From a virus (taxonomy: Duplodnaviria > Caudoviricetes), in the IMG/VR virus record IMGVR_UViG_3300021962_000022: a DNA stretch of 64,000 nucleotides, one strand, 5' to 3'. A model generated the notes under the pieces. It was not told the DNA's origin. It saw nothing but the letters and a program-made list of their open reading frames with translations, and made no database searches. Shown here piece by piece: positions 3,619 through 40,297 of this stretch. Both the position numbers and the translations under genes were made by a program. Position 1 is the first letter of the stretch. Each line of letters starts with the position of its first letter.

Positions 3619-4326
3619 TTAACAACCCATTCCCTCAGTGTAAGGATTACCGTCCACTATACCACTCGTAGCGTAGTAAACAGAACCACCATATTTGAAG
3701 TATCCATTATATGGTGTTGTTAAACTTTGGTTAGTATAAATGGCGCCCGAAACTGATGGGAATTCACCAACCGAACAACTAGTGTATACCGTTATTAATC
3801 CACCAGAACATGTTATTACACCCGGACAAGAACATTGTTGTATTGACCAAGAATTAAATAAACATGATGGTGTTGGGGTTGGGGTTAAAGTTCTTGTTGG
3901 TGTTGGGGTTGGGGTTAAAGTTCTTGTTGGTGTTGGGGTTGGTGTTGGTGTTTTTGATGGTGTAGGAGATGGTGGTGGTGGTGTTGCACTCGGTGTAACA
4001 GATGGGGTCACACTTGGTGTCGGACTTGGACTAACACAAACTGTTTGTACATCGAAACACATTGTGTCATAACATGGGAATGCTTTACTATCGTGAGTAT
4101 AGATATTTTTAATAATATATCTTCCCGTAGTTTCATCAGTCATTTTAATCCAATATTGGGTATCAAAAGACAAACCACTAATCGTTATATTATTTACAGT
4201 TAATCCTGTGTTTAATAAAGTGAAAGACGAATCAATAGTTTCAGGATACGGCGATTCACCAGATTTATATCGAATGGAAAAACTACCGTCCGAAACAATG
4301 TTATATATTTTTACATTTAATCCCAT
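3619..4326 (-). CDS. 235-aa protein: Ig/Fn3-like N-terminal domain, PT linker, Cys-rich C-terminal module
   Basis: ORF track; beta-rich N-terminus ([16 protein letters not shown] is Fn3-like); PTPT linker. Confidence 0.8.
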
Positions 4327-4328
4327 TA

Positions 4329-6155
4329 TTATGTCGTTACATCAGAAGTTATATAAATTATTAATGATGTTGTACTGTTAGGTATCAAATATGTATCATT
4401 TATTGAACCTGTACCACAACTTGATTCGGTGTTTGTTTGAACTGTAACTCCGTTTCTAACTATAGAATATCCAACGACGCTACATCCATAACCTAAAGCG
4501 GTACAACCTGAAGTTATACCTAAAGCATCCATACTTAAATCAATTAAATCGCCAACATGTGCTGTTGTTGTACCACTATATGTACTAACAGGGAATGGTG
4601 TGTTCCAAGTATAAAAAGTAGTTCCATTTTTTTGAATATTACCAAAAGTTCTTGAACATGAATTCAATTTTTGATGTTGGTAAATCAAGGATATTGTAAT
4701 TGAACTTGGGGTTGGTGATGGTGTAATAGATATCGATGGTGTTCGTGTGATAGATGGTGTAACAGAAGTAGTTGGTGTAACCGATTGTGTAACGTTTGGT
4801 AAAGATGAACTTGGTGTTGGTGTGATAGATGGTGTTCTTGTGGGTGTTGATGAACGTGTGGGTGTAATTGATGGTGTTATGGTTGGTGTTTTTGTTGGAG
4901 TTGGGGTCTTGGTTACGGTTGGTGTTGGTGTTTTTGATGGTGTAGGAGATGGTGATGGTTGAGGTATCGGAGTTGCAACAAGATATTCAACCGAATTAGT
5001 ACACGAACCAACACTTTGTATCGTTCCGCCTGTTATTGAGTAACAAACCAATGTGGTATAACCTGATATTAATTGAGTATTTGTTACACCAGTTGCAATT
5101 GTAACAATTGTTCCACCTGTTGTGGTTCCCGAAATGTTATATGGTCCCGCTTGATTTAAAAAATAAATTTCTTGTAATGTGAATGTATATTGTGTACATC
5201 CACTTGGTATTGTTGATGGGGACGGGGTTACTGACATTGTTGGAGTCAGTGAAGGTGTAATCGAACTTGTTGGAGTAACACTTGGGGTTACTGAACTTGT
5301 TGGTGTCACAGTTGGTGTAACCGATGGTGTTGAACCCATGGTTGATGAGGGTGTGGGCGTAATTGATGGTGTTATGGTTGGTGTTTTTGTTGGAGTTGGG
5401 GTCTTGGTTACGGTTGGTGTTGGTGTTTTTGATGGTGTAGCCGTAACACTTGGTGTGGATGTCATTGTAGGTGTTACTGTTGGTGTAACACTTGGACACA
5501 CCGGAGAACAAATTTGACCTGAAAAAATCGCAATACCACTATATGGGTATGCTGTATTAACACAGACACCTGATGGGAATAATGAACCACTTTGATATGT
5601 TCCACAACAATCGGTATAATACCAAGATGGACCATCTGTAACACCCGATATACAAACAGGTGTTGGTGTTGGGGTTATAGATGGTGTTGGTGTAGGTGTC
5701 GGACTTGGTCCCGCTTGACAAGTGGGGCAATCAAGATGAAATAACCCGTTATTTTTTAATGTTTGAACGGTAAATGCGGGAATTGTATTTCCCGTACCCG
5801 CGGTATAAACAGGTGTGAATGTGTGACACTCTTCAGAATAGGATATTGTTGCACCTGTGGTATAAAAATATTCATAAATTTCTGAGTTGGGGAAAGAAAA
5901 TTGTTGGTCAGCACCCATCGGGTCACAATTGTCAAAATCCCAAGTATTGTATGTACTATTACATTGACTACATCCTGTATATCCTGAAAAAATAACAATA
6001 CCAGTAGGTCCTGCTCCAACATTACCTGTGGATTCCCAACATTGGTAATCCGCAAAAATGGTGTGTCCCGATAAAACAACACTATCGTTAACTATAAAGT
6101 CTTGATAAGTCGAAGGATTTGAACAAAGTTGGAAGGTTATTATTTGAACAGCCAT
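4329..6155 (-). CDS. 608-aa modular protein: tandem CxxC-ending modules, TP linkers, C-terminal beta domain
   Basis: ORF track; TATTTATA upstream; modules shared with the giant ORF. Confidence 0.85.
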
Positions 6156-6199: not shown

Positions 6200-9100
6200 T
6201 TAACAAACTTCTTCACAACCACAACCGTGTGCCCCACCACAACAAGTTACACCATAAGAGAAACCTGACGTACCACCTAAATTAGGTATTGTATACCATA
6301 CACCTCTGTCGAATACCGCTAAGTACATTACTCTACTTATACATCTACTTTCAGTTGTTGCTGTGGTGTATAATCGTTGAAAGAATTGACCATCACAACA
6401 TTGATAATACATATAAACTTGACCATAATCTGTAATGTCTCGGTCAGTAATATTAATCTCCGTACACTTACAATCACACGCACCTATGACCGATACTGAA
6501 CCAGTCCACGGAAATCCGCCGACGTTAGGTGCTCCACAAGCGCATAAAACTAATTCGTGATTTCCACCATTTGCCTCCCAATAAGCGGGGTCAGACAATG
6601 TTTGGGCATTACCCTGACAATCTGTGTAACTAACAAAGTTCCAATTGTTTAATTGAGTTACTAACCATTCACGACAATCACATGGTGGTGTTGATGAAGG
6701 TGTTGGGGTTGGAGTTGGTGATACACCCGCAGCAGCAGGGGAACTTGATGGTGTTACAGAAGGGGTAACAGATGGAGTTAAAGATGGTGTAACCGAAGGT
6801 GTTGGTGTTCTACTTGGTGTAACAGATGGAGTTAAAGATGGTGTAACACTAGCGGTTCTCGATGGTGTAACCGAACTTGTTGGTGTAACGCTCGGGGTTA
6901 CTGATGGTGTAACTGAAGGTGTAACTGATGGAGTTACGCTGGCAGTTCTTGAAGGGGTAACAGATGGTGTTGGTGGTGGGGATGCTCCCGCTGTTCTACT
7001 TGGTGTAACACTAGCGGTTCTTGATGGAGTTAAAGATGGTGTAACCGAAGGTGTTGGTGTAACACTTGGTGTTCTTGACGGTGTAACACTTGGTGTTATC
7101 GATGGTGTAACACTAGCGGTTCTCGATGGTGTAACGGATGGACAATTTTGAAACGTTTCAAGAATACATTCTTCACAACTACCATAACTTGATGTATATA
7201 TCGGGCCGGTATTTGGTCCAAAGTCATCAAATCTTGCACATAATTGGGCTGATTGTATATAAAACACCGTTCCAATTGCCGTACCAATTGGTACTCTACC
7301 TTGATAAATTGTTGTATCACCAGCACAACATGAAGTAAACACCGCACCTATGTACTGTGGACTTGGTGATGGTGTTACAGAAGACGTTGGTGTTAATGAA
7401 GGTGTAATAGATGGTGTTACTGAACTACTTGGTGTAACTGAAGGTGTAACGGAAGGTGTAACGCTCGATGTTGGTGTCACAGAAGGTGTAACGCTCCGTG
7501 TTGGGTCTGGTGTTCTTGATGGTGTAGGAGTAACAGAAGGTGTAACGCTCGATGTTGGTGTCACAGAAGGTGTAACGCTCCGTGTTGGGTCTGGTGTTAC
7601 TGAACTACTTGGTGTAACTGAAGGTGTTGTACTTGGTGTAATTGAAGGTGTTACAGAACTACTTGGAGTTACAGATGGTGTTCTTGAAGGGGTGATAGAT
7701 GGTGTAACAGATGATGTTGCGGTTACTGATGGTGTTGTACTTGGTGTAATTGAAGGTGTTACAGAACTACTTGGAGTTACTGATGGTGTTGTACTTGGTG
7801 TAATTGAAGGTGTTACAGAACTACTTGGAGTTACAGATGGTGTTGTACTTGGTGTGATAGACGCGGTAACACTTGATGTTGGTGTTAACGACGGAGTGAT
7901 AGAAGGTGTTACAGATGGAGTTCTTGAAGGGGTCAAAGAAGGTGTTCTTGACGGAGTTGCAGTTACTGAACTTGTTGGGGTTGGTGATGGTGTTGGACAG
8001 GTAAATACCGCGTTACAACTTGCACAATCAGCGAATTTTGAACTAGCCAATGTATAGAAAGGATATGCACCATTTGCAATTAAAACAAATGATTGATAAC
8101 ATGTCCCTCCAAATGGATAAATTCCAGGGTTACCAGTTATGTAGTTAAAATCACCCTGTGTCATGTTGATGTTGTAAATATTGTTATCACAACAACTCTG
8201 TGTTTGTACCGACACAATTACAGTTGATGGTGTTACTGTAGGTGTAACTGATGGAGTCACAGAACTACTTGGGGTTACCGAAGGTGTTACAGAAGGTGTA
8301 ACGCTCGATGTTGGTGTTACTGTAGGTGTAACTGATGGAGTCACAGAACTTGTAGGGGTTACGGATGATGTAACGGAAGGTGTAATGCTCGATGTTGGTG
8401 TCACAGAAGGTGTAACGCTCCGTGTTGGGTCTGGTGTTCTTGATGGTGTAGGAGTAACAGAAGGTGTAACGCTCGATGTTGGTGTCACAGAAGGTGTCAC
8501 TGATGGTGTTACACTTGGTGTGACAGAACTTGTTGGGGTAACTGATGAGGTAACCGACGGAGTCACTGAGCTTGTTACCGATGGTGTAACTGAAGGTGTT
8601 ACACTTGGAGTTACTGAAGAAGTAACAGATGGTGTAACGGAACTTGTTGGTGTTACTGATGGTGTTACTGAACTTGTAACCGAAGGTGTTACAGAACTAG
8701 TTGGGGTGACTGAAGGTGTTAGTGATGGGGTAACTGATGCGGTTCTACTTGGTGTAACTGATGGTGTAACAGATGATGTTGGTTCTGGTGTTCTTGATGG
8801 TGTAACAGATGATGTTGGAGTTACAGAAGGTGTTGTACTTGGTGTGATAGAAGGTGTTACGGATGATGTTGCTGTCACTGATGGAGTTACAGAAGGTGTC
8901 ACGGATGGTGTAACAGATGATGTTGGAGTTACAGAAGGTGTTGTACTTGGTGTGATAGAAGGTGTTACGGAACTTGATGGTGTAACGGAAGGTGTTAATG
9001 ATGGTGTAACTGACGGTGTAACACTTGAAGTTGCTGTCACTGATGGAGTTACAGAAGGTGTCACCGATGGAGTAACAGATGATGTTGGTGTTACGGATGG

Positions 9101-12100
9101 TGTTCTACTTGGTGTAATTGACGGAGTTACAGAACTACTTGGAGTTACAGAAGGAGTAACCGATGAAGTGATACTCGGAGTTACTGAAGACGATGGTGTT
9201 ATTGAAGGTGTTGTACTTGGTGTGATAGAAGGTGTTACGGAACTTGATGGTGTAACGGAAGGTGTTAATGATGGTGTAACTGACGGTGTAACACTTGAAG
9301 TTGGTGTAATTGACGGGGTTACCGATGGAGTTACCGATGGGGTAACACTTGATGTCGGTGTAACACTTGGTGTCCTACTTGGTGTAACTGATGGTGTCAC
9401 AGATGAAGTTGCAGTTACTGAAGGTGTTGTACTTGGTGTGATAGAAGCCGTCACAGATGGTGTTACAGAACTACTTGGAGTTACAGAAGGTGTTGTACTT
9501 GGTGTTATTGAAGAAGTTACCGACGGAGTTACAGAACTACTTGGGGTAACTGAAGGTGTTCTCGATGAAGTGACAGAAGGTGTTACAGAAGATGTTGGTG
9601 TAACAGAAGGTGTTACAGAAGGAGTCACGGATGGTGTAACCGAACTACTTGGAGTTACTGATGGTGTTGTACTTGGTGTAAGTGATGGGGTAACAGAACT
9701 TGTAGGAGTAACCGAACTAGTAACACTTGGTGTGAGAGATGGTGTAACCGAACTACTTGGTGTAACTGAAGGTGTTGTACTTGGTGTAAGTGATGGAGTA
9801 ACTGAGCTACTTGGGGTTACAGAAGGAGTAACACTTGGTGTAACTGAGCTCGTAACACTTGGAGTAACTGATGGTGTAACACTTGGTGTAACTGAGCTCG
9901 TAACACTTGGAGTAACTGATGGTGTAACGGAACTACTTGGTGTAACCGAAGGAGTAACAGAACTTGTTACAGAAGGAGTAACAGATGATGTTGCAGTTAC
10001 TGAAGGGGTTACTGAAGGTGTAACTGAAGGTGTTACCGAACTTGTTGCAGTTACCGAAGGGGTTCTTGACGGGGTGACACTCGGTGTAACACTAGAAGTA
10101 GGTGTAACAGATGGAGTAACGGATGGTGTTACTGAACTTGTTATGGATGGTGTTACCGAACTAGTAACTGAAGGAGTAACTGATGGAGTCACACTTGGAG
10201 TTACGGATGATGTTGGTGTTACAGATGATGTCACCGAAGGGGTTATACTCGGTGTAACCGAACTAGTAGGTGTAACGGATGGAGTTACTGATGGTGTAAG
10301 TGATGGTGTAACGGAACTAGTAGATGTTACAGAAGGGGTTACTGATGGTGTAAGTGATGGTGTAACGGAACTAGTAGATGTTACAGAGGGGGTTACTGAA
10401 CTTGTAACACTTGGAGTAACTGAAGACGTTGGTGTTACCGAAGGTGTTACCGAAGGTGTAACCGATGGGGTTACTGAAGAAGTTGGTGTTACTGACGGTG
10501 TTACCGAAGGAGTTACAGAACTTGTTACCGAAGGTGTAACGGAAGGTGTTAAAGATGGTGTTATACTTGGTGTTACTGAAGGTGTTACGGAACTACTTGG
10601 TGTAACACTTGGCGTTCTTGAAGGAGTAACACTTGGTGTAACTGAACTTGTTGGCGTAACTGAACTTGTAACTGACGGGGTTATTGAAGAAGTAACACTT
10701 GGAGTTACGGAACTAGTAACAGATGGAGTGACACTTGGTGTTATAGATGGTGTAACAGAACTTGTGGGTGTTACTGATGGTGTAAGTGATGGAGTAACAG
10801 AAGGTGTTACTGACGATGTCGCGGTTACGGATGGGGTAACAGATGGTGTAAGTGATGGTGTTACCGAACTTGTTGGAGTAACAGATGGTGTAACGGATGG
10901 TGTAACAGAACTAGTAACTGATGGAGTAACCGAACTTGTTACTGAAGGAGTTACACTTGGAGTAATCGATGGAGTTACTGAAGATGTTGGAGTTACAGAA
11001 GGTGTTGTACTTGGTGTAATTGATGGGGTTACAGATGACGTTGCGGTTACGGATGGGGTAACAGATGGTGTAAGTGATGGTGTTACACTTGATGTTACTG
11101 ATGGAGTAACACTTGGTGTTCTTGATGGTGTTATAGATGGTGTAACTGAACTTGTCGGTGTAACTGAACTTGTAACAGATGGTGTGACAGATGGTGTTAC
11201 CGAACTAGTTGCAGTAACCGAAGGAGTAACCGAAGGGGTAACCGACGGAGTAACGGAACTTGTTGGAGTTATAGATGGTGTAACGGAACTAGTAACCGAT
11301 GGAGTTACACTTGATGTTACCGATGGGGTTACACTTGGTGTTACAGAACTTGTTACCGATGGTGTTACTGAACTTGTAACCGAAGGTGTAACAGAACTTG
11401 TAACTGACGGAGTAACAGAAGGTGTTACTGAACTAGTAGGTGTCACTGATGGAGTCACACTTGGTGTTACACTTGGAGTAACAGACGAAGTTGGTGTCAC
11501 AGATGGAGTAACCGATGGTGTTACTGAACTAGTAACCGATGGTGTAACAGACGATGTCACTGATGGAGTCACACTTGGTGTTACACTTGGAGTAACAGAC
11601 GAAGTTGGTGTCACAGATGGAGTAACCGATGGGGTTATACTTGGTGTTACCGAACTTGTTGGAGTTATAGATGGTGTAACGGAACTAGTAACCGATGGAG
11701 TTACACTTGATGTTACCGATGGGGTTACACTTGGTGTTCTTGACGGTGTTATAGATGGTGTCACGCTCGAAGTTGGTGTAACAGATGGAGTTACAGAACT
11801 TGTTACCGAAGGTGTTACAGATGATGTTGGTGTTACTGATGGTGTTACGGAACTTGTAACCGATGGAGTTACAGACGAAGTAACGGATGGAGTCACTGAC
11901 GGAGTAACCGATGGTGTAACCGAACTTGTTGCGGTAACACTTGGTGTCACACTTGAAGTAACGGATGGAGTCACTGAACTTGTTGGTGTTACCGATGGTG
12001 TTACTGATGGAGTTACGCTTGATGTCACTGAAGGTGTTACCGATGGGGTAACTGAAGGTGTTCTTGATGGTGTAACTGATGGTGTTACCGAACTTGTTGG

Positions 12101-15100
12101 AGTAACTGATGAGGTAACTGATGGAGTCACTGAAGAAGTGACCGATGGGGTAATGGATGATGTTGGAGTAACAGATGGTGTAACTGATGGTGTTAGTGAT
12201 GGGGTTACTGAAGACGTTGGGGTTACAGATGGTGTAACACTCGGAGTTATGGAACTCGTTACTGACGGAGTCACTGAACTTGTTACCGACGGTGTTATTG
12301 ATGGTGTTGCCGATGGAGTAACAGAACTTGTCGGAGTTACTGAAGGAGTTACTGATGGTGTTACCGAACTTGTTACGGATGGAGTTACCGAACTTGTAAC
12401 AGACGGAGTAACTGACGATGTCACAGATGGCGTAACACTTGATGTTGGAGTTACTGATGGTGTTACCGAACTAGTAACAGATGGTGTAACTGAACTTGTA
12501 ACAGAAGGAGTAACTGAAGGTGTTCTTGACGGTGTTACAGATGGTGTAACTGATGATGTCGGGGTAACTGATGGAGTTACAGAACTAGTAACCGATGGAG
12601 TTACTGAAGATGTTGGAGTAACAGATGGTGTTACACTTGGTGTTACTGACGCGGTTACTGATGGAGTTACAGATGATGTAACTGATGGGGTAACCGAACT
12701 TGTTACCGAGGGTGTTACTGACGAAGTTGGTGTTACTGACGGAGTTACTGATGGTGTTATACTTGGAGTAACAGAACTTGTTGGGGTTACCGAAGCCGTA
12801 ACAGAAGGTGTTACTGAACTTGTTACCGAAGGTGTTACGGATGATGTTACAGATGGCGTTCTACTTGGTGTAATAGATGGTGTTACGGAACTAGTTGGGG
12901 TAACTGAAGGAGTTACGGATGGGGTAACAGAACTTGTCACCGAAGGTGTTACAGATGGTGTTACGGATGGAGTAACCGATGGTGTAACTGATGGTGTAAC
13001 AGACGAAGTTGGTGTCACAGAAGGTGTAACCGATGGAGTGACACTTGACGTTACTGACGGAGTCACTGAACTTGTTACCGACGGTGTTATTGATGGTGTA
13101 ATAGATGGTGTTACTGAACTAGTTGGGGTAACTGAAGGAGTCACGGATGGGGTTACAGAACTAGTGACAGATGGTGTTACTGAAGGGGTTACAGACGGAG
13201 TAACTGACGAGGTTACAGAAGGGGTTACACTTGATGTTGGAGTAACTGAAGCGGTAACTGACGGTGTTACGGATGGGGTAACAGAACTTGTTACCGAAGG
13301 TGTTACAGATGGTGTAACAGAAGGTGTTACAGAAGATGTTGGTGTAACAGATGGTGTTACTGAAGGTGTTACCGACGGTGTTACAGAACTAGTTGGTGTT
13401 ACTGATGGAGTTACTGAAGGTGTAACGGAACTAGTGACAGATGGTGTTACTGAAGGTGTTACTGATGCGGTTACCGATGGAGTAACTGAAGAAGTTGGTG
13501 TAATCGATGGTGTCACAGACGAAGTTACAGAAGGTGTAACAGAACTTGTTGGCGTTACACTCGGAGTTACTGATGGTGTTATCGAAGGTGTTACTGATGA
13601 TGTAACAGATGGAGTTATACTTGGTGTAACTGAACTTGTAACACTTGGAGTCACAGAACTTGTAGGGGTTACGGATGATGTAACGGAAGGTGTAACCGAT
13701 GGGGTAACTGATGATGTCACCGACGGAGTGATAGACGGAGTCACACTTGATGTCACCGATGGTGTAACTGAACTGGTGGGTGTTACTGACGGTGTAATCG
13801 ATGGTGTAACGGAAGGTGTTATAGAACTAGTTACTGAAGGTGTTACAGAAGGTGTTCTACTTGGTGTTACTGATGGAGTAACGGAACTTGTAGGAGTTAC
13901 CGACGAAGTAACAGAAGGAGTTACTGAACTTGTAACTGATGGAGTTACAGAAGGGGTTAAAGATGGTGTTACAGAACTAGTGACTGACGGTGTTACCGAT
14001 GAAGTTGGTGTTACCGAAGGTGTGACAGATGGAGTAACAGATGATGTCACGGATGGCGTAACGCTTGGGGTAACACTAGGTGTGACTGAAGGTGTTACGG
14101 ATGGGGTTACTGAACTTGTTGGTGTTACAGAAGGTGTGACAGATGGAGTAACAGATGGTGTAACCGATGATGTTACCGATGGAGTAACCGATGGAGTGAC
14201 AGAACTAGTGACTGATGGTGTTACACTCGAAGTAGGTGTTACCGATGGAGTAACTGATGGTGTAACTGAACTTGTAACGGAAGGTGTTACTGAAGGTGTA
14301 AGTGATGGGGTGACTGATGACGTAACTGAAGGAGTCACTGATGATGTTGGGGTAACAGATGATGTTACTGAAGGTGTTACAGAAGGAGTTATCGATGATG
14401 TAACCGATGGTGTTACCGAACTAGTAACAGAAGGGGTTACACTTGGTGTTACTGATGATGTCGGTGTAACACTTGGTGTTCTACTTGGGGTAACTGATGG
14501 AGTTACAGAACTTGTAGGTGTTACTGACGGTGTTAATGATGGCGTAACTGAACTTGTAACAGAAGGTGTAACAGATGGTGTTACCGAACTAGTAACTGAT
14601 GGAGTTACACTTGGAGTTACAGATGATGTGGGTGTTACAGAACTTGTAACCGATGGAGTTACAGAACTAGTGACTGACGGAGTAACCGATGGAGTAACGG
14701 ATGGTGTAACTGAACTCGTAACCGAAGGGGTCACTGAAGAAGTTGGGGTAACAGAGGGTGTTCTACTTGGGGTGATGGATGGGGTGATGGATGACGTAAC
14801 TGAGGGAGTGACACTCGGAGTAACCGATGAAGTCACTGAAGGTGTAACACTCGAAGTAGGTGTCACTGATGGTGTAACCGATGGTGTAACTGATGAAGTA
14901 GGTGTCACTGATGGTGTAACCGATGGTGTAACTGATGAAGTAGGTGTCACTGATGGTGTAACCGATGGTGTAACACTCGAAGTAGGTGTCACTGATGGTG
15001 TAACCGATGGTGTAACACTCGAAGTAGGTGTCACTGATGGTGTAACCGATGGTGTAACTGATGAAGTAGGTGTAACCGATGAAGTCACTGAAGGTGTAAC

Positions 15101-18100
15101 ACTCGAAGTAGGTGTCACTGATGGTGTCACTGATGGTGTAACCGATGGTGTAACTGATGAAGTAGGTGTAACCGATGAGGTAACTGACGGTGTAACAGAA
15201 CTAGTGACCGATGGAGTTACAGAACTTGTTACCGAAGGTGTAATCGAAGGAGTTACCGACGGTGTCACAGACGAAGTTGGTGTTACAGACGGAGTTACAC
15301 TTGGTGTTACAGACGGAGTTACAGACGAAGTTGGTGTTACAGACGGAGTTACACTTGGTGTTACAGACGGAGTTACACTCGATGTTACAGATGGAGTAAC
15401 AGATGGAGTGACAGAACTAGTAACTGATGGAGTCACACTCGATGTTGGGGTAACTGAAGGAGTCACGGATGGGGTAACAGAACTTGTTACCGAAGGTGTT
15501 ACTGACGAAGTTGGTGTTACGGATGGAGTTACCGAAGGGGTAACAGAACTTGTTACCGATGGTGTTACAGAACTAGTAACTGAAGGTGTTAATGATGGTG
15601 TTATTGATGGTGTAACTGATGGAGTGACGCTCGAAGTAGGGGTTACTGATGAGGTGACAGAAGGTGTTACCGAACTAGTAACTGATGGTGTAACTGATGG
15701 GGTTACTGAAGGTGTTACAGAACTAGTAACCGATGGTGTCACACTTGATGTTGGAGTTACTGATGGTGTTGTACTTGGTGTAAGTGATGGGGTTACCGAT
15801 GATGTAGGTGTTACTGAAGGTGTTACCGATGGAGTAACACTTGAAGTAACTGACGGTGTAACGGATGGTGTTACACTTGGGGTAACACTCGATGTTACAG
15901 ATGGGGTCACAGAACTAGTTGGTGTAACAGACGATGTAACCGACGGGGTTATAGAAGGTGTAACTGATGGGGTTACAGAACTAGTAACTGATGGGGTTAC
16001 AGAACTTGTTACACTTGGTGTTACTGATGAGGTTGGAGTCACCGACGGAGTAACCGAAGGAGTAATCGAAGGTGTTACTGAACTAGTTGGTGTGACAGAA
16101 GATGTAACTGATGGTGTAACAGAGGGTGTAACTGATGATGTTGGGGTTACTGATGAAGTTACCGATGGGGTAACAGAACTTGTTACTGAAGGAGTAACCG
16201 AAGAAGTTGGTGTTACGGATGGGGTGACCGAACTAGTGACAGAAGGTGTTACCGATGGAGTGACACTTGAAGTAACTGACGGTGTAACTGAACTACTTGG
16301 GGTAACACTTGGGGTTACTGATGAAGTTACCGATGGTGTAACACTCGATGTCGGAGTTACTGATGGAGTAACAGAACTTGTTACTGACGGAGTTACTGAT
16401 GGTGTAACAGAAGGAGTAACACTCGGAGTTACAGATGATGTAACAGATGGTGTTACTGAACTTGTAGGGGTTACTGAAGGTGTTAGTGAAGCGGTTACCG
16501 ATGGGGTAACTGAACTTGTTGGTGTTACCGATGCGGTAACGGAAGGTGTGATAGATGGAGTAACACTTGGTGTCACCGATGAGGTTACGGATGGGGTAAC
16601 TGATGGTGTTCTACTCGGTGTTACTGACGGTGTAACAGATGATGTTGGTGTTACGGATGGTGTTACACTTGGGGTTACAGATGGTGTTACCGAACTAGTT
16701 GCAGTAACCGAAGGAGTAACTGAAGGTGTTACCGAAGGTGTGACAGAACTTGTAGGAGTAACCGATGAGGTAACAGATGGGGTCACTGATGAAGTTACTG
16801 ATGGAGTAACGCTCGATGTTGGTGTTACTGAAGATGTTACACTTGGTGTTAAGGATGGTGTGACTGATGATGTTACTGAAGGAGTTACTGATGGTGTTAT
16901 ACTTGGGGTTACAGATGATGTAACGGAAGGTGTTACTGACGATGTTGGGGTTACGCTCGGAGTTACGGATGCGGTAATAGATGGTGTTACAGAACTAGTG
17001 ACAGATGGTGTAACACTTGGTGTAACCGATGAGGTAACAGATGGGGTAACTGAACTACTTGGTGTAACGCTTGGTGTCCTCGATGGGGTAATTGATGGTG
17101 TAACAGATGAAGTTGGTGTAACTGACGGAGTAATCGAACTTGTTACAGATGGAGTTATTGAACTTGTTACAGATGGAGTTACAGAACTTGTTACCGAAGG
17201 TGTTAATGATGGTGTTACGGAACTAGTTGGTGTTACTGATGGTGTAAGTGATGGTGTGACAGATGGTGTGATAGATGGTGTAACCGAATTAGTGACTGAT
17301 GGTGTAACGGATGGTGTTACGGAACTCGAAACTGAAGGTGTTAATGATGGTGTAACTGAAGGTGTTAATGACGCGGTTACGGACGGTGTTAAACTTGGTG
17401 TTACTGAAGGTGTTGGTGTACTTGTTGGCGTTGGTGATGGTAACATCGTATAATCAATGTCACATGAAGGTGCTGGTGTAGGGGTTACTGATGGTGTTAA
17501 AGACGGAGTAACCGATGGAGTTACAGAACTAGTTGGTGTAACGCTTGGTGTGACAGATGGAGTTACTGATGGGGTGACAGAACTAGTAATAGAAGGTGTT
17601 ACCGATGAGGTTACACTTGGTGTTACTGAACTTGTAGGTGTAATTGATGGTGTAACGGAACTAGTGACCGAAGGTGTAACCGATGGTGTAACGGAACTAG
17701 TTGGGGTGACTGACGGAGTTCTACTTGGTGTTAGTGATGGTGTAATAGAAGGAGTTACACTTGGAGTAACTGAACTTGTTGGAGTAACACTCGGGGTTAC
17801 AGATGATGTAACAGAAGGTGTTACTGAACTTGTGACAGAGGGTGTTACTGATGGGGTAACAGATGGTGTTACACTTGGTGTTACTGAACTTGTAGGGGTT
17901 ACTGATGGTGTTCTAGATGTCGTAACGGAAGGGGTTACGGAACTAGTTGGTGTTACGGAACTAGTAACAGATGGTGTAACCGACGGCGTTACTGAACTAG
18001 TAACTGACGGAGTAACACTTGGGGTTTCACTTGGAGTAACCGAAGGTGTTTCACTTGGTGTTATCGACGGTGTAACCGAACTAGTAGGTGTAACCGAAGG

Positions 18101-21100
18101 TGTTTCACTTGGAGTGATTGACGGTGTTACAGAACTAGTTAGAGTAATGGAAGGTGTTATACTTGGGGTTACCGATGATGTTACTGAGGGAGTTATAGAT
18201 GGGGTTATACTCGGTGTAACCGATGCGGTGACAGATGGTGTAACTGAACTCGTGGGTGTAACTGATGGAGTTACCGATGCGGTGACAGATGGTGTAACTG
18301 AACTAGTAACACTTGGAGTAACGGATGCTGTAACTGAAGGTGTTATACTTGGTGTAACAGAACTAGTTGGGGTTACAGATGGAGTTTCACTTGGTGTTAT
18401 CGACGGTGTTATACTTGGTGTAACAGACGCAGTAACTGATGGAGTTATACTTGGTGTAACAGACGCAGTAACAGATGGTGTTACCGAACTAGTGGGTGTA
18501 ACCGAAGGTGTTTCACTTGGAGTTATACTTGGTGTAACAGAACTAGTGACTGATGGTGTAACACTTGCGGTAACGGAAGGTGTCACTGATGGTGTAACCG
18601 ATGCGGTAACTGATGGTGTTATACTTGGTGTAACGGAACTAGTAACAGATGGTGTCACCGAAGGTGTAACAGATGATGTCGGTGTAACACTTGGTGTTTC
18701 ACTTGGAGTTATACTTGGTGTAACTGATGATGTCGGTGTAACACTTGGTGTTTCACTTGGAGTTATACTTGGTGTAACTGACGGAGTAACACTTGATGTT
18801 GGAGTTACAGATGGGGTTATACTTGGAGTTACCGATGCAGTAACCGACGGTGTAACCGAACTAGTTGGTGTAACAGATGGAGTTTCACTTGGTGTGATAC
18901 TTGGTGTAACGGAACTAGTAACAGATGGGGTTATACTTGGAGTTACCGATGCAGTAACCGACGGTGTTACTGAACTAGTTGGGGTTACAGATGGAGTTTC
19001 ACTTGGTGTTATCGACGGTGTTACGGAACTGGTTGGTGTAACTGAACTAGTAACACTAGGTGTTATACTTGGTGTAACTGAACTAGTAGGTGTAACACTT
19101 GGTGTAACGCTTGGTGTTACGGATGAAGTAACCGAAGGTGTAACTGAACTAGTCGGTGTAACACTTGGTGTTTCACTAGGTGTAACCGATGCGGTAACAG
19201 ATGGTGTTACTGAACTAGTAGGTGTAACACTTGGTGTTTCACTTGGTGTGATTGATGGTGTTATACTTGGTGTAACGGATGATGTTGGGGTTACAGATGG
19301 AGTTTCACTTGGAGTTATACTTGGAGTAACCGACGGTGTAACTGAACTAGTTGGTGTAACAGATGGAGTTTCACTTGGTGTGATACTTGGAGTTATACTT
19401 GGAGTAACTGATGATGTTGGTGTGATAGATGGTGTAACTGAACTAGTAACTGATGGAGTTACAGAACTTGTTGGGGTTATAGACGGAGTTTCACTAGGAG
19501 TGATTGACGGTGTTATACTTGGTGTAACTGATGAAGTAACAGATGGGGTTACTGATGGTGTTACTGAACTAGTGACACTTGGAGTAACTGAACTAGAGGG
19601 TGTAACCGAAGGTGTTGCACTTGGTGTTATACTTGGTGTAACTGATGATGTTGGTGTGACTGATGGAGTTACAGAACTAGTAACTGACGGAGTAACACTT
19701 GATGTTGGTGTAACACTTGGTGTTTCACTTGGAGTGATTGATGGTGTTATACTTGGTGTAACGGAACTAGTAACACTAGGTGTTATACTTGGTGTAACTG
19801 AACTAGTAACAGATGGTGTTACCGATGGTGTTTCACTTGGTGTTATACTTGGTGTAGCAGATGGTGTTACTGAACTAGTAGGTGTAACACTTGGTGTTTC
19901 ACTTGGTGTAACGGAACTAGTAACAGATGGTGTTATTGAAGGAGTTACAGAACTAGTGACTGATGGAGTTACTGAACTTGTCACACTTGGTGTAAGTGAT
20001 GGGGTAACAGAACTTGTTGGAGTTACGGAAGGTGTGATTGATGGTGTAACTGAAGGTGTTCTTGAGGGTGTTAAACTTGGTGTTACAGATGAACTTACAG
20101 ATGGAGTAACCGAACTTGTAACCGAAGGGGTTACGGAACTAGTTGGTGTTACGGAACTAGTAACAGATGGTGTTATTGAAGGAGTTACGGAAGGTGTTAA
20201 TGATGGTGTTACAGATGATGTTACAGAAGGGGTTACCGAAGGTGTTACAGAAGGTGTAACTGATGACGTTGGTGTTACGGAACTAGTAATCGATGGGGTT
20301 ACACTTGAAGTAACAGATGGTGTAACTGAACTAGTAACTGAAGGTGTTAATGATGGTGTTCTTGATGGTGTAACAGAAGGAGTTACGGATGAGGTTGGTG
20401 TAACCGATGAGGTAACCGATGGTGTAACCGAACTAGTAACTGAAGGGGTTACCGAGCTCGTTACTGATGGAGTAACACTTGAAGTTACAGAAGGAGTTAC
20501 GGAAGGTGTTATACTCGAGGTTGGGGTTACTGACGGTGTCAATGATGGTGTAACGGAACTAGTGACCGAAGGTGTAACCGATGGTGTAACTGATGGAGTG
20601 ACACTTGGTGTAATCGATGGGGTAACAGATGATGTTGGGGTGACTGACGGTGTTATACTTGGTGTAATTGATGGGGTTACCGATGATGTAGGTGTTACTG
20701 AAGGTGTTACCGATGGAGTGACACTTGAAGTAACTGACGGTGTAACGGATGGTGTTACACTTGGAGTCAATGAACTTGTAACTGATGGTGTTACAGATGA
20801 TGTCGGAGTTACTGATGGAGTAACAGAGGGTGTAACAGAACTAGTAACTGATGGTGTTACTGATGGTGTTAGTGATGGTGTAACTGAACTTGTAACAGAA
20901 GGTGTTACCGATGGTGTAACTGAACTAGTGACCGAAGGTGTAACCGATGGAGTTACAGACGAAGTTGGGGTTACACTTGGTGTGATTGACGGGGTAACCG
21001 AAGGGGTTACAGAACTAGTAACACTTGGAGTTACGGAACTGGTAACAGATGGTGTTACCGATGGAGTTACAGATGATGTTGGTGTTACTGAAGGGGTTAC

Positions 21101-22195
21101 TGAACTTGTTATCGATGGTGTTAATGATGGGGTTACTGAACTTGTTGGTGTTACAGAGCTTGTAACTGACGGTGTAACACTTGAAGTAATTGATGGTGTA
21201 ACACTCGGAGTTACGGAACTTGTTGGAGTTACAGATGGTGTGACTGATGGTGTGATAGATGGTGTAACCGAACTAGTAGGTGTAACTGATGGAGTTACTG
21301 AAGCGGTTATAGATGGAGTCACTGAACTCGTAACAGATGGTGTAACGGAACTTGTTGGGGTTATAGATGGTGTTAAAGACGGAGTAACCGATGGTGTAAC
21401 TGATGGAGTTACTGAACTTGTTGGTGTAACAGAACTAGTAACAGATGGTGTTACTGAAGAAGTTGGTGTAACAGATGTGGTAACCGATGGTGTTACTGAA
21501 GGTGTAACCGACGAAGTTGGTGTTACAGACGGAGTCTCACTTGGAGTTAACGACGGTGTTAAACTTGGTGTTACTGAAGAAGTTGGTGTAACAGATGTGG
21601 TAACCGATGGTGTGATAGAAGGAGTAACTGATGGTGTAACACTTGGAGTAACTGAACTTGTTGGTGTTACACTTGGAGTCTCTGAAGGTGTAATAGATGG
21701 AGTTACAGAGCTAGTGGGTGTGATTGATGGTGTAATCGAGCTAGTTGGAGTTACAGAAGGTGTAACTGATGGTGTAACATCTGGTGTTCTTGTTGGTGTA
21801 ACCGATGGGGTTGGGGTAATTGAACTCGTTGGAGTAACTGATGGAGTCACTGATGGAGTTGAAGTTACTGATGGGGTTGTTGTGACAGTTGGTGTTACTG
21901 AAGGTGTGGTTGTGACAGTTGGTGTAACAGGAGGTGTACTTTGTGGTGTTGGCGTTAAACTTGGTGTAACAGAAGGTGTAATTGAAGGTGTTGGGGATGG
22001 ACAATTAATTGCCGCGTAACATGTTTTGTCATGCGATGGAAAATAAACTGAATAGGTTCCTAAGTAATAAGTTGTGTCGTAATAATACGGCATCACAACA
22101 GTACCTAAATTAATGGTACCGCCAGTACAGGGATAAAATGTGATAACACCAATTTCACCATCAAAATTACCTGTGTTTATCTTTATTAATGCCAT
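6200..22195 (-). CDS. 5331-aa giant mucin-like (TPSV/TSSV repeat) protein with N-terminal domain and C-terminal Cys-rich modules
   Basis: Uninterrupted 16-kb ORF with plausible non-repetitive N- and C-termini, a dedicated upstream promoter, and synonymous variation concentrated at wobble positions of this frame. Confidence 0.85.
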   Translation of the reverse strand: MALIKINTGNFDGEIGVITFYPCTGGTINLGTVVMPYYYDTTYYLGTYSVYFPSHDKTCYAAINCPSPTPSITPSVTPSLTPTPQSTPPVTPTVTTTPSVTPTVTTTPSVTSTPSVTPSVTPTSSITPTPSVTPTRTPDVTPSVTPSVTPTSSITPSITPTSSVTPSITPSETPSVTPTSSVTPSVTPSVTPSITPSVTTSVTPTSSVTPSLTPSLTPSETPSVTPTSSVTPSVTPSVTTSVTPTSSVTPSVTSSVTPTSSVTPSVTPSVTPSLTPSITPTSSVTPSVTSSVTPSITASVTPSVTPTSSVTPSITPSVTPSVTPTSSVTPSVTPSITSSVTPSVTSSVTPTSSVTPSLTPSITSSVTPSVTPTSSVTPSVTPSVTSSVTPSVTSSVTPSVTPSITPSVTPTSSVTPSVTPSVTSSVTPSVTPSVTSSVTPSLTPSVTPSVTSSVTPSVTPSVTPTSSVTPSVTSSLTPSVTPSVTPSVTSSVTPSVTPSVTPTSSVTPSITPSITPSVTPTSSVTPSITPSVTPSVTPSVTPSVTSSVTPSLTPSVTPTSSITPSVTPSVTSSVTPSVTSSVTPSVTSSVTPSVTSSVTPTSSVTPSVTPSRTPSLTPSVTSSVTPSVTSSVTPSITSSVTPTSSVTPSVTPSVTPSVTSSVTPSLTPSVTPSITPSVTSSVTPTSSVTPSVTSSVTPSVSSSVTPSLTPSRTPSVTPSITPSVTPTSSVTPSLTPSVTSSVTPSVTSSVTPSITPSVTSSVTPSETPSVTPTSSVTPSATPSITPSETPSVTPSVTSSVTPSITPSVTSSVTPSITPSITPSETPSVTPTSSVTPSVTSSVTPSVTPTSSVTPSITPSATPSVTPSSSVTPSVTSSVTPSVTPSVTSSVTPSITPSITPSETPSITPTSSVTPSVTSSVTPSITPTSSVTPSITPSITPSETPSVTPTSSVTPSVTPSITPSETPSVTPTSSVTPSITPSITPSETPSVTPTSSVTPSVTASVTPSETPSVTPTSSVTPSVTSSVTPSVTPSVTPTSSVTPSITPSVTSSVTPTSSVTPSITPSETPSVTPTSSVTPSVTASVTPSITPSVTSSVTPSITPSETPSVTPTSSVTPSVTASVTPSITPSVTPTSSVTPSVTPSITPSETPSVTPTSSVTPSITPSETPSVTPTSSVTPSVTPSVTSSVTPSITPSVTASVTPSVTPSVTASVTPSVTSSVTPSITPSETPSVTPTSSVTPSVTASVTPSITPSVTASVTPSITPSITPSETPSVTPTSSVTPSITPSVTASVTPSVTSSVTPSVTASVTPSVTPTSSVTPSVTASVTPSITPSITPSVTSSVTPSITPSITLTSSVTPSITPSETPSVTPTSSVTPSITPSETPSVTPSETPSVTPSVTSSVTPSVTPSVTSSVTPTSSVTPSVTTSRTPSVTPTSSVTPSVTPSVTPSVTPSVTSSVTPSVTSSVTPSVTPTSSVTPSVTPSITPSLTPSRTPSVTPTSSVTPSVTPSVTSSVTPSITPTSSVTPSVTSSVTPSITSSVTPSVTPSVTPSVTPTSSVTPSVTPSLTPSVTPTPAPSCDIDYTMLPSPTPTSTPTPSVTPSLTPSVTASLTPSVTPSLTPSVSSSVTPSVTPSVTNSVTPSITPSVTPSLTPSVTPTSSVTPSLTPSVTSSVTPSVTSSITPSVTSSITPSVTPTSSVTPSITPSRTPSVTPSSSVTPSVTSSVTPSVTPSVTSSVTPSITASVTPSVTPTSSVTPSVTSSVTPSITPSVTPSVTSSVTPSLTPSVTSSVTPTSSVTPSVTSSVTPSVTSSVTPTSSVTPSVTPSVTPSVTATSSVTPSVTPSVTPSVTPTSSVTPSVTPSRTPSVTPSVTSSVTPSVTPSITPSVTASVTPTSSVTPSVTASLTPSVTPTSSVTPSVTSSVTPSVTPSVTPSVTPSVTSSVTPSVTPTSSVTPSVTSSVTPSVTPSSSVTPSVTSSVTPSVTPSVTSSVTPSVTPTSSVTPSVTSSVTPSVTSSVTPTSSVTPSVTPSVTSSVTPTSSVTPSITPSVTPSVTPTSSVTPSVTSSVTPSVTSSVTPSVTPSITPSVTSSVTPTSSVTPSVTSSVTPSVTPSVTPSVTSSVTPSVTPSVTPTSSVTPSLTPSTTPSVTPTSSVTPSVTSSVTPSVTPSVTPSVTSSVTPSVTSSVTPTSSVTPSVTPSITPSLTPSVTSSVTPSVTSSVTPSVTPSVTPTSSVTPSVTSSVTPSVTPSVTPTSSVTPSVTSSVTPSVTPSVTSSVTPSVTPSVTPSVTPTSSVTPSVTPSVTPSVTPTSSVTPSVTPSITPSVTSSVTPSVTSSVTPSVTSSVTPTSSVTPSVTPSVTPSVTPTSSVTPSVTSSVTPTSSVTPSVTPSVTPTSSVTPSVTPSVTPTSSVTPSVTPSVTPTSSVTPSVTPSVTPTSSVTPSVTPSVTPTSSVTPSVTSSVTPSVTPSVTSSITPSITPSRTPSVTPTSSVTPSVTSSVTPSVTPSVTPSVTSSVTPSVTSSVTPTSSVTPSVTPSVTSSVTPSVTPSVTSSVTPSLTPSVTPTSSVTPSVTPSRTPSVTPTSSVTPSVTPSVTSSVTPSVTSSITPSVTPSVTSSVTPTSSVTPSVTSSVTPSLTPSVTPSVTSSVTPSVTPSVTPTSSVTPSVTSSVTPSVTPSVTSSVTPSVTPSVTPSVTPTSSVTPSVTPSVTPSVTPSVTPSVTSSVTPSVTPSVTPTSSVTPSVTSSVTPSLTPSVTPSVTSSVTPSVTSSVTPTSSVTPSVTPSRTPSVTPSVTSSITPSVTPSITPSVTPTSSVTPSVTSSVTPSITPSVTSSVTPSVTPSVTSSVTPTSSVTPSVTSSVTPSITPSVTSSVTPSITPSVTPSVTPTSSVTPSVTSSVTPSITPTSSVTPSVTASVTPSVTPSVTSSVTPSVTPSVTPTSSVTPSVTPSVTPSVTPTSSVTPSVTPSVTPSVTSSVTPSVTPSVTASVTPTSSVTPSVTSSVTPSVTPSVTPSVTSSVTPSVTPSVTPTSSVTPSITPSITPSVTSSVTPSVTSSVTPSVTPSVTPTSSVTPSVTPSVTPSVTPSVTPSVTSSVTPSVTPSVTPTSSVTPSITPSRTPSVTSSVTPSVTSSVTPSVTASVTPTSSVTPSITPSVTPSVTPTSSVTPSVTSSVTPSVTSSVTPSVTASVTPSVTPSVTPTSSVTPSVTSSVTPSVTPTSSVTPSVTPSRTPSVTPSVTSSVTPSVTSSVTPSVTPTSSVTPSVTSSVTPSVTSSVTPSVTSSVTPSVTPSVTPTSSVTPSATPSITPSVTSSVTPSVTSSITPSVTPSVTPTSSVTPSLTPSVTPSVTPTSSITPSVTSSVTPSVTSSVTPTSSVTPSVTPSRTPSVTPSVTPSVTSSVTPSVTPSVTPTSSVTPSVTSSVTPSVTATSSVTPSVTPSVTPSVTSSVTPSVTSSVTPSVTPTSSVTPSVTSSVTPSVTPTSSVTPSITPSRTPSVTPSVTSSVTPSVTSSVTPSITPTSSVTPSITPSVTPSVTPTSSVTPSVTPSVTPSVTSSVTPSVTSSVTPSVTPSVTPTSSVTPSVTPSVTPSVTPTSSVTPSVTPSVTSSVTPSVTSSVTPSVTSSVTPSVTPSVTSSVTPSVTSSVTPSITPTSSVTPSVTPSVTPSVTATSSVTPSVTPSVTSSVTPTSSVTPSITPSRTPSVTPSVTSSVTPSLTPSVTPSVTATSSVTPSITPSTTPSVTPTSSVTPSITPSVTPSVTSSVTPSVTSSVTPSVTPSVTPTSSVTPSLTPSVTPSVTATSSVTPSVTPSLTPSVTPTSSVTPSITPSVTPSVTSSVTPSVTSSITPSVTSSVTPTSSVTPSVTPSRTPSVTPSSSVTPSVTPSITPSLTPSVTPSVTSSVTPSVTPSVTPTSSVTPSVTPSVTPSVTPTSSVTPSVTSSVTPSVTSTSSVTPSLTPSVTPSVTSTSSVTPSLTPSVTPSVTPTSSVTPSITPSVTSSVTPTSSVTPSVTPSVTPSVTSSVTPSITSSVTPSVTPSVTPTSSVTPSVTPSRTPSVTATSSVTPSVTPSVTPSVTATSSVTPSVTSSVTPSVTPSSSVTPSVTPSVTSSVTPSVTPSVTPSVTSSVTPSVTPSVTPSSSVTPSLTPSTTPSVTPSSSVTPSLTPSVTSSVTPTSSVTPSLTPSTTPSVTPSSSVTPSVTPSVTPSVTPTSSVTPSVTSSRTPSVTPSSSVTPSVTSSITPSTTPSVTPSSSVTPSVTASITPSTTPSVTATSSVTPSVTPSRTPSVTPTSSVTPSVTPSVTPSITPTSSVTPSVTPSLTPSVTPSSSVTPSITPSTTPSITPSSSVTPSITSSVTPSVTPSSSVTPSITPSRTPSVTPTSSVTPSVTPSVTPSVTATSSVTPSVTPSLTPSVTPSSSVTPSITPSTTPSVTPTSSVTPSVTPSVTPSVTATSSVTPSITPSTTPSVTPTSSVTPSRTPEPTSSVTPSVTPSRTASVTPSLTPSVTPTSSVTPSVTSSVTPSVTPTSSVTPSVTSSVTPSVTPSVTPSVTSSVTPSVTSSVTPTSSVTPSVTPSVTPSVTPTSSVTPSVTPTPSRTPDPTRSVTPSVTPTSSITPSVTSSVTPTSSVTPSVTPTVTPTSSVTPSVTPSVTPSSSVTPSVTPTVTPSTVIVSVQTQSCCDNNIYNINMTQGDFNYITGNPGIYPFGGTCYQSFVLIANGAYPFYTLASSKFADCASCNAVFTCPTPSPTPTSSVTATPSRTPSLTPSRTPSVTPSITPSLTPTSSVTASITPSTTPSVTPSSSVTPSITPSTTPSVTPSSSVTPSITPSTTPSVTATSSVTPSITPSRTPSVTPSSSVTPSITPSTTPSVTPSSSVTPDPTRSVTPSVTPTSSVTPSVTPTPSRTPDPTRSVTPSVTPTSSVTPSVTPSVTPSSSVTPSITPSLTPTSSVTPSPSPQYIGAVFTSCCAGDTTIYQGRVPIGTAIGTVFYIQSAQLCARFDDFGPNTGPIYTSSYGSCEECILETFQNCPSVTPSRTASVTPSITPSVTPSRTPSVTPTPSVTPSLTPSRTASVTPSRTAGASPPPTPSVTPSRTASVTPSVTPSVTPSVTPSVTPTSSVTPSRTASVTPSLTPSVTPSRTPTPSVTPSLTPSVTPSVTPSSSPAAAGVSPTPTPTPSSTPPCDCREWLVTQLNNWNFVSYTDCQGNAQTLSDPAYWEANGGNHELVLCACGAPNVGGFPWTGSVSVIGACDCKCTEINITDRDITDYGQVYMYYQCCDGQFFQRLYTTATTESRCISRVMYLAVFDRGVWYTIPNLGGTSGFSYGVTCCGGAHGCGCEEVC
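8220..22000. repeat. About 13.8-kb low-complexity coding repeat (3-5 aa units: TPSV, TSSV, TPSI, TPSE, TPSR, TPST)
   Basis: Direct reading; repetitive at protein level, degenerate at DNA level. Confidence 0.95.
14853..15062. repeat. Five near-identical 42-bp tandem copies ([14 protein letters not shown])
   Basis: gaagtaggtgtcactgatggtgtaaccgatggtgtaac(tgat/actc) at 14853, 14895, 14937, 14979 and 15021. Confidence 0.9.
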
Positions 22196-22235: not shown

Positions 22236-22264
22236 AATATACTCAATTTTTAGGGGTTTGTCAA
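22236..22264 (-). promoter_or_regulatory. Sigma70-like promoter TTGACA-N17-TATATT upstream of the giant repeat gene
   Basis: -35 at 22264-22259, exact 17-nt spacer, -10 at 22241-22236, 40 nt before the ATG. Confidence 0.7.
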
Positions 22265-37250: not shown

Positions 37251-37251
37251 G

Positions 37252-37704: not shown

Positions 37705-37734
37705 ACTAATAAATATAACTAAAGAAGAAATACT

Positions 37735-37742
37735 TATAAATA
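37735..37742 (-). promoter_or_regulatory. Putative late promoter motif TATTTATA (second copy TATTTATT at 37708-37715)
   Basis: Directly after the nrdA terminator, ahead of the baseplate operon. Confidence 0.6.
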
Positions 37743-37767
37743 AAAAATCCCAACCGAAGTTGGGATT
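37741..37767 (-). terminator. Rho-independent terminator after nrdA
   Basis: 9-bp stem AATCCCAAC/GTTGGGATT, C(UUCG)G tetraloop, U-tract. Confidence 0.9.
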
Positions 37768-37858
37768 GTGTATATTGTTTGATTTTTTTGCTCCTTTTAT
37801 AATCAAACAAAGTAGATGTTTGCGGTAGGTCGCGAACTATTATTGGAGCCATCTACAG

Positions 37859-40291: not shown

Positions 40292-40297
40292 AATATT

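Follow-up and report, generated by a model that had tools for sequence, protein, structure and literature searches.

What does a tailed phage do with a protein that is built like a mucin and takes up a quarter of the DNA in which it was found? The question is raised by a 64,000-nucleotide stretch of caudoviricete DNA (IMG/VR record IMGVR_UViG_3300021962_000022; hereafter the window), in which one minus-strand open reading frame (ORF) at 6200..22195 encodes 5,331 amino acids (about 519 kDa before any glycan), 2,892 of them Ser or Thr. Its translation has a single terminal stop, no internal stops and no N bases, and the 16-kb ORF noted in an initial annotation of the window is real and stop-free. 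We lean towards reading this giant as an accessory, flexible, self-O-glycosylated mucin-type virion tether with folded tips, which would widen the range of capture or adhesion; its glycosylation, virion location and function are what we infer.

Residues 66–4650 are 94.9% Pro, Thr, Ser or Val, confirming the initially described stretch of about 4,600 such residues, but composition understates the order of the array. Strict [S/T]-X dyad runs take in 4,886 of the 5,331 residues, and successive Pro residues almost always stand an even distance apart, at 4, 6 or 8 residues. The first tract (17477..21997, minus strand; aa 67–1573) ends at an internal Cys motif, and the second (8222..17437, minus strand; aa 1587–4658) contains the longest unbroken dyad run, 2,884 residues. 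Across the whole protein, 54% Ser plus Thr and 18% Pro agree with the long Pro/Thr/Ser-rich (PTS) domains of animal gel-forming mucins, although animal PTS domains are much less strictly dyadic. The most hydrophobic 19-residue window scores only 1.17 (Kyte–Doolittle), so the giant has neither a transmembrane segment nor a signal-peptide h-region, as first proposed.

Could the ORF be an assembly artefact, or could the ORFs antisense to it be the true genes? Many contigs break inside the array, and gene callers picked antisense ORFs over the giant in all ten close assemblies checked. However, the longest exact DNA repeat in the ORF is 111 nt (none reaches 127 nt), one 8-residue unit present in 231 copies has 201 distinct DNA encodings, and the sense frame encodes conserved, foldable domains. 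The length comparison proposed in the initial annotation yielded full-length orthologues of 2,737, 2,940, 4,989 and 5,472 aa, with different repeat units, at the equivalent locus in related phages; together with the synonymous divergence of the copies, this speaks against the assembly inflation of which that annotation had warned. The larger antisense ORF (8181..17453, plus strand; 3,090 aa) is reproduced by synonymous shuffling, re-drawn sense codons giving about 3,085 aa, and the second (17457..22019, plus strand; 1,520 aa) has an erratic length, 310–1,590 aa in other strains; neither is a gene. Two contigs of one ENA metagenome assembly, from a sample that may be the window's own, match about 11 kb of the 16-kb ORF, roughly 70% of it, at ≥99% identity. 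We therefore consider an artefact extremely improbable: the giant ORF is a real, conserved gene, neither chance nor assembly inflation, and it is systematically mis-annotated. The antisense calls probably explain why no protein of 2.9–9.3 k aa with the giant's N-terminal domain (N-domain) turned up among 5.8 billion predicted proteins. The shadow ORFs (window; L055, L300–L309) are rich in Val, Thr, Glu and Gly, and such spurious proteins probably sit in public databases.

The array nonetheless varies between strains. In ten assemblies that share an identical 305-aa neighbour, the sense frame stayed open across all 1,494–1,888 visible codons and the internal Cys motif lay anywhere between aa 364 and 1,644, indicating that the array alters fast and always in frame. 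Near-identical assemblies differ by in-frame indels, and the exact length given here may be off by some in-frame units. A pattern scan of IMG/VR identified 28 loci; the C-terminal query in that scan returned no matches, because the terminal modules diverge too fast. Such variability might reflect runaway, near-neutral expansion of an ordinary Pro/Thr linker, with length lacking function. Short versions of the linker are common in these phages, lengths differ by a factor of about two among phages, the position of the motif shifts more than fourfold among strains, and the giant is missing in some relatives. Yet about 5% of a 300-kb genome has been kept open in 10 of 10 close strains and in all distinct orthologues but one, the repeat copies are synonymously diverged, and the dyad rule outlasts complete turnover of the repeat unit (SVTP, TNTP, TITP, TNTLTP) at lengths of 2.7–5.5 k aa. 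Purely neutral growth thus seems improbable.

The sequences bounding the tracts form small folded domains. Structure prediction, suggested in the initial annotation, returned beta-sandwiches for both ends. The N-domain (21998..22195, minus strand; aa 1–66, close to the 65 aa first estimated) was modelled by AlphaFold2 as a six-stranded beta-sandwich (predicted local distance difference test score, pLDDT, 75.5), and a fold search gave generic immunoglobulin (Ig)/FN3-like matches only (best Z 6.0). We rejected an assignment as a type IX secretion system C-terminal domain (Z 5.3–5.4), which was non-specific and at the wrong terminus. The N-domain also starts many phage proteins of 224–728 aa, where a short Pro/Thr linker often connects it to a PA14/GLEYA, F5/8 or LamG domain; judged by sequence, the giant is an extreme form of this layout. 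In G001, a contig of 288 kb (92% complete) that is syntenic with the window and whose core proteins are mostly 80–99% identical, one N-domain paralogue is found in the company of late-motif genes. Elsewhere, the complete 321-kb genome G030 (L392–L394) encodes three separate N-domain proteins of 1,097–1,765 aa with tracts and many modules, and a further such protein in G034, open-ended, reaches at least 3,491 aa.

At the C terminus, all four Cys-rich modules described initially are present. Modules A (7994..8221, minus strand; about aa 4659–4734; pattern CC..C..CxxC..CP) and B (7139..7357, minus strand; about aa 4947–5019) are homologous and align with conserved CC, C, CxxC and CP positions. 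Modules C (6473..6682, minus strand; about aa 5172–5241) and D (6203..6472, minus strand; about aa 5242–5331) were modelled together as two small beta-sandwiches (pLDDT 87.6). Outside the repeats, modules B–D offer seven tryptic peptides. No Pfam family matched the terminal modules at E ≤ 1, including the VWD/C8/TIL, CysD and cystine-knot families, and no tail-fibre or spike family matched them in PHROG or Pfam. The C+D model, which covers the two modules that were folded, had no clear match among PDB folds (best Z 3.8). By sequence, the terminal modules do not match the domains of animal mucins, the comparison drawn initially. A search with module A of 1.84 billion representatives yielded 38 matches, mostly similar Cys-module proteins with a few spurious repeats. 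The ESM Atlas gave only unnamed clusters with scores below 0.9. Between strains, the tip modules are shuffled and diverging. The initial annotation missed a conserved internal Cys strand motif (17438..17476, minus strand; aa 1574–1586) of the form C-[DNE]-[FI]-D-[IVY], which other Pro/Thr-containing phage proteins carry in as many as 15 copies and which, by its sequence pattern, is a possible self-pairing fibre motif. In the L187, L234 and L266 proteins, its repeats (up to 15) are spaced at about 25–35 aa between short Pro/Thr linkers.

Indirect evidence for glycosylation came from relatives. G001 encodes seven GT2 glycosyltransferase matches and two sugar clusters, along with two tandem genes of family GT60 (PF11397; E 3e-72 and 7e-48, 244 and 164 bits against a cut-off of 21). 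Both proteins retain intact DSH, GEE and distal His (WH) motifs, and we take the DxH, GEE and distal His motifs to have their usual roles in GT60. G004 and G009 likewise carry PF11397 genes, 14 control genomes had none, and a GT1/GT4 search in relatives gave one sub-threshold match only. GT60 enzymes make N-acetylglucosamine (GlcNAc)-alpha-O-Thr on Trypanosoma cruzi mucins (PMC9472816), and GT60 acts in the cytosol on Skp1 hydroxyproline (PMC6939170). Among 50,697 GenBank phage records, only four matched the G001 GT60, and two of the four were examined. These, the Xanthomonas jumbo phage XacN1 (48% identical) and the Stenotrophomonas phage RAS14 (the two ranging over 45–48%), resemble the giant's clade in pairing a GT60 homologue with TP(S/T)xTP tracts; each encodes about a dozen or more tract proteins, several of which in XacN1 sit beside baseplate, neck and sheath genes. 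The accessible part of the XacN1 report describes at least two glycoproteins in virions, positive by periodic acid–Schiff staining, and draws no link there between the glycosyltransferase and the tracts (PMC5852040).

We then compared GT60 with tracts across genomes, scoring tracts by a DNA pattern for TP[ST]xTP[ST]xTP. GT60-positive genomes carried the tract in both cultured phages and in 17 of 19 IMG/VR genomes (9 of 9 of those at least 90% complete), whereas none of eight GT60-negative large phages did. Among eight contigs picked by sheath similarity alone, the sole tract-bearing one was the sole GT60-bearing one. Pooled, the tract occurred in 20 of 22 GT60-positive and 0 of 15 GT60-negative genomes (Fisher P = 1.5e-8, uncorrected for kinship and with six negatives being incomplete contigs), and the positives span lineages whose terminases are ≤33% identical or undetectable. 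In the reverse test, 12 of 16 tract-picked contigs carried GT60. Glycosylation, the mucin-like trait proposed at the outset, is thus consistent with both GT60 co-occurrence and XacN1 virion glycoproteins, and by extension we infer it for the giant. We think it likely that GT60 initiation followed by GT2/GT4 extension yields a protease-resistant bottle-brush: the Thr/Ser at alternate positions would receive alpha-GlcNAc from the phage GT60, and the glycans would then be extended by GT2/GT4-type enzymes and sugar-nucleotide genes of the phage. The stalk would weigh about 1 MDa if each dyad site carried one sugar.

Two other routes were considered. We rejected host Bacteroidetes O-glycosylation, given only 0–3 D-(S/T)-x sequons per giant and the missing export signal. 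A Skp1-type hydroxyproline route is disfavoured: a prolyl 4-hydroxylase-like protein in G001 (L045:16667-17536; G001 196667-197539) has the first Fe-binding His of its HxD motif replaced and is missing from 16 of 17 other genomes, which makes a hydroxyproline acceptor unlikely. From its sequence this protein is probably inactive and might bind Pro-rich chains; a genome-level PF13640 search was blank, having missed this protein, which scored below threshold. The sugar clusters hold further genes. One encodes a RuBisCO-like protein (L049:12967-14193; G001 272967-274196; PF00016, E 1e-31) adjoining haloacid dehalogenase (HAD), nucleotidyltransferase and TylF methyltransferase genes, possibly an unusual sugar pathway. 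At a sugar-cluster end, a Pfam-matched thioredoxin stands with a glutaredoxin-like gene recognized by eye (L043:13103-13703; G001 153103-153703), a pair that could serve the Cys-rich modules.

Is the giant part of the virion? A natural fusion bears on this question. In G040, whose terminase is 88% identical to that of G001, the locus has no separate giant; instead, the homologue (67% identical) of the 1,413-aa gene that ends the post-baseplate operon in the window (22289..26530, minus strand) extends to 2,703 aa. The extension adds two internal strand motifs, about 830 tract residues, two A/B modules and the C/D pair (module matches E 4e-8 to 6e-5), and the N-domain is absent. This fusion supports a tie, at the level of gene architecture, between the stalk and the last protein of the post-baseplate gene block. 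It also suggests that the N-domain docks on the 1,413-aa protein where the two are separate, since in G040 a covalent fusion replaces the N-domain; we rate this docking as rather probable. The 1,413-aa protein would itself be structural by gene context. The N-terminally anchored, virion-attached filament of the initial annotation is favoured by the fusion, by the N-domain on lectin-bearing proteins and by the XacN1 virion glycoproteins; its promoter, which is not of the late type, points the other way.

That promoter is sigma70-like (TTGACA-17-TATATT at 22236..22264, minus strand; 11/12 match) and is conserved in the closest orthologues; G001 encodes a sigma70 factor. From its distribution, the clear late-promoter candidate for the clade is TATTTAT, which precedes 61 of 335 G001 genes compared with 1.5% of random windows, among them terminase, portal, sheath, tube and the three genes after the giant. 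It also lies upstream of many unannotated G001 genes at 236–259 kb, which may be virion proteins, and occurs in the window at 6173–6179 (minus strand). The TTGACA type is found at one GT60 gene and a GT4-like gene of G001. Because it is common to the giant and a GT60 gene, the giant may be made ahead of the late genes; as read from sequence, the promoter would let work on a slowly made, heavily modified protein begin early, and would also fit an intracellular role. In such a role the unpackaged giant would be a glycosylated assembly scaffold or condensate, or a nucleotide-sugar sink or decoy, for which the promoter and the missing export signal would speak. But TTGACA-type enrichment is weak (10 of 335 genes against 0.8%), late-motif genes make up the cassette in which the giant lies, no terminator is predicted between it and the 1,413-aa gene, its G040 counterpart is fused to a tail-operon protein, and the conserved Cys patterns would suit an oxidising, post-lysis setting. 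We consider an intracellular role unlikely.

The physical reach of the giant follows from its stiffness. Its contour length was computed at about 1.1–1.6 µm, and the 1.1–1.4 µm filament initially envisaged corresponds to contour length only. At the persistence lengths measured for mucins, 7–18 nm (PMC6874590), a free chain would have a root-mean-square (rms) span of about 130–240 nm; the simulated TIM-4 value of 41.5 nm (PMC10550946) would raise the span to about 300–360 nm, and for a bare chain, with 1 nm assumed, it would be about 50 nm. At rest, the giant would thus reach one to three times the roughly 100-nm tail inferred from a 648-aa tape measure, itself assigned from gene position only, and would be micron-scale only when stretched. 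An ordered, stiff, multi-chain fibre of about 1 µm, registered by the N-domain, the internal motif and the tips, would come nearest to the picture first drawn. The strict two-residue periodicity with almost exclusively even Pro spacing and the many repeats of the strand motif in other phages would suit it, but neither a beta-solenoid nor a coiled coil readily accommodates a Pro content of 17–21%, the 4-, 6- and 8-residue units are irregularly mixed, and mucin glycodomains are too flexible at the measured values. We regard a fibre of this kind as quite improbable; an ice-binding beta-solenoid was rejected on the same Pro content.

A glycan brush could alternatively shield the virion rather than capture hosts, by hydrating the particle, by blocking proteases, decoy vesicles or adhesion to particles, or by slowing decay, with the Cys modules acting as caps or cross-links. 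The glycosylation and fusion evidence also fits shielding, the tip modules match no lectin, and work cited in PMC12619734 ascribes a shielding role to the glycans on mycobacteriophage capsids and tail tubes. On the other hand, sister N-domain proteins end in the sugar-binding domains PA14, F5/8 or LamG, and the shuffled, strain-diverging tip modules are adhesin-like. We find shielding as the main role unlikely, and prefer a tether. In the proposed mechanism, the giant would be made in the host cytoplasm, possibly ahead of the late genes, and would dock through its N-domain on the 1,413-aa protein of the tail/baseplate operon; the Cys modules would become disulfide-stabilised beta-sandwich tips once the cell has lysed. 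The chain would form a coil of about 130–240 nm, stretchable toward 1.1–1.6 µm under flow or load, that extends the distance over which hosts can be captured and fastens the particle to host capsule, extracellular polymeric substances (EPS) or lake particles, with a reach that varies between strains.

Several observations weigh against this tether. The window itself lacks GT60: the search for glycosyltransferases suggested initially found the GT60 pair and GT2 genes in G001, and the enzyme is assigned to the window's phage from this relative, with its mostly 80–99% identical core proteins. GT60 was present in only three of six near-complete tract-picked contigs, the other three being tract-positive without it, so the tracts do not strictly require GT60. 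XacN1 micrographs, in the portion of the report available, show no tail fibres, and its glycoprotein bands are unnamed (PMC5852040). The tracts of XacN1 and RAS14 are short linkers, with runs of at most 96 residues compared with about 4,600 in the giant, and neither phage has an N-domain homologue. The giant has no TATTTAT late motif, only the TTGACA-type promoter. The 1,413-aa protein has no Pfam, PHROG or PDB match and no structural annotation. One orthologue (L006:10001-10924) carries a frameshift after 255 aa and has its internal motif in a different frame; it is a pseudogene or an assembly error. Finally, several clade members lack an N-domain giant, which is why we call it accessory.

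The surrounding genes place the giant near the tail genes. Genes for sheath, tube, hub and wedge lie within the window; the block that ends at the giant is headed by the baseplate wedge genes (gp6/J-like and gp25-like; 35418..37806, minus strand). Six co-oriented genes without Pfam or PHROG matches separate the wedge genes from the giant, which therefore does not directly follow the baseplate operon as initially stated. Three of the four genes downstream share a Pro/Thr-linker plus Cys-module design: 4329..6155 (608 aa, with TATTTAT upstream), 3619..4326 (235 aa) and 926..3214 (762 aa, or 712 aa in another assembly through an in-frame repeat indel). The fourth, 3226..3576, encodes a 116-aa Cys-containing protein and has the late motif upstream; all four are on the minus strand. 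A phrog_15511 assignment for neighbouring genes was rejected because it matches the repeat only. A replication block (37859-46097, minus strand) lies between the tail hub and baseplate wedge genes; by eye, we take it to encode ribonucleotide reductase alpha and beta, a helicase, and RNase H-like, RecA-like and single-stranded DNA-binding proteins. Just upstream of the G001 sheath, a gene (L038:1770-4301; G001 61770-64304) combines a Pro/Thr tract with a DUF5122 beta-propeller, and tracts thus occur also in the neck/tail cluster.

The carrier can be placed through the same relative. In G001 (33.5% GC, many sugar genes), bS21 lies antisense between the portal and prohead protease genes. This arrangement is given as a signature of freshwater Bacteroidetes huge myoviruses in the consulted portion of the bS21 study (Chen et al. 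2022, PMC9723584), so the window's phage is presumably a bS21-type Bacteroidetes myovirus. G004 and G006 also carry bS21, and the block of large terminase, portal, protease and major capsid protein genes falls outside the window.

How does the giant compare with known systems? Cellulase and scaffoldin (T/S)-X-T-P linkers join small beta domains and are O-glycosylated in several species; they span tens of residues and belong to secreted enzymes, whereas the giant's array is viral and about 100 times longer. Serine-rich repeat proteins (SRRPs) of Gram-positive bacteria, such as PsrP, GspB and Fap1, have long Ser/Thr-X alternation and are O-glycosylated in the cytoplasm by dedicated enzymes (PMC6973325). 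The giant shares their alternating repeat, strain-variable length and plan of stalk plus binding region. Unlike them, it is phage-encoded, has Pro at every fourth to eighth position and has GT60 rather than GtfA/B as its candidate initiator. Its terminal sequences, read directly, show no long signal peptide, no accessory Sec transport (AST) domain and no C-terminal LPXTG anchor; its putative anchor is N-terminal and its tips C-terminal. SRRP genes lie in a secA2/Y2 and gtfA/B locus; the flanks of the giant are phage genes, and in relatives the GT1/GT4 search gave only the sub-threshold match. With T. cruzi mucins and their GT60 enzyme TcOGNT (PMC9472816), the giant has in common a Thr/Ser/Pro-rich domain and, in close relatives, an encoded GT60; it differs from trypanosome and animal mucins in having no secretory pathway, signal peptide, glycosylphosphatidylinositol (GPI) anchor or VWD/CysD/CTCK match. 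In its working, the giant resembles SRRP adhesins and trypanosome mucins, yet it belongs with neither SRRPs nor animal mucins when judged by export signal, anchor and domain content.

Viruses that glycosylate their own virions provide another comparison. Mycobacteriophage glycosyltransferases modify capsid and tail-tube subunits (Freeman et al. 2023, as cited in PMC12619734). As in chloroviruses, these are virus-encoded enzymes acting on virion proteins, with glycans on capsid or tail-tube subunits; here, by contrast, we propose that GT60 initiates glycans on one giant protein that serves as a dedicated substrate and offers about 2,400 dyad sites. In the parts of the bS21 huge-phage study consulted, sugar genes are read as lipopolysaccharide (LPS) remodelling, the giant gene is not discussed, and 'mucin' appears only as an automatic annotation in the supplement (PMC9723584). 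The literature searched, which excluded most subscription papers, held no description of the giant protein or of a phage GT60–tract pairing. Virion glycosylation was known already, in mycobacteriophages and XacN1; in the literature covered, giant proteins dedicated to serving as its substrate went unreported.

We put at roughly even the chance that the giant marks an undescribed phage mucin-type glycosylation system. A wider version, which we hold tentatively and at slightly less than even, is that several unrelated large-phage lineages build their own mucin-type glycocalyx. GT60 would initiate cytoplasmic O-GlcNAc on the (S/T)-X-T-P tracts of many virion proteins; in one clade, a substrate would have grown to a 0.5-MDa stalk with a length tuned between strains; and the sugar clusters would serve virion glycosylation, not LPS remodelling, the whole hidden by antisense annotation. 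The giants also expose an annotation blind spot: the antisense frame was called in every close assembly checked, and no N-domain giant was found among billions of predicted proteins. The link between enzyme and substrate is open to test in cultured XacN1 and RAS14 and in the deposited XacN1 proteome. If true, phages would own a eukaryote-style mucin coat built by their own enzymes, and the abundant glycosyltransferases of freshwater huge phages, previously read as LPS remodelling, would have an alternative account.

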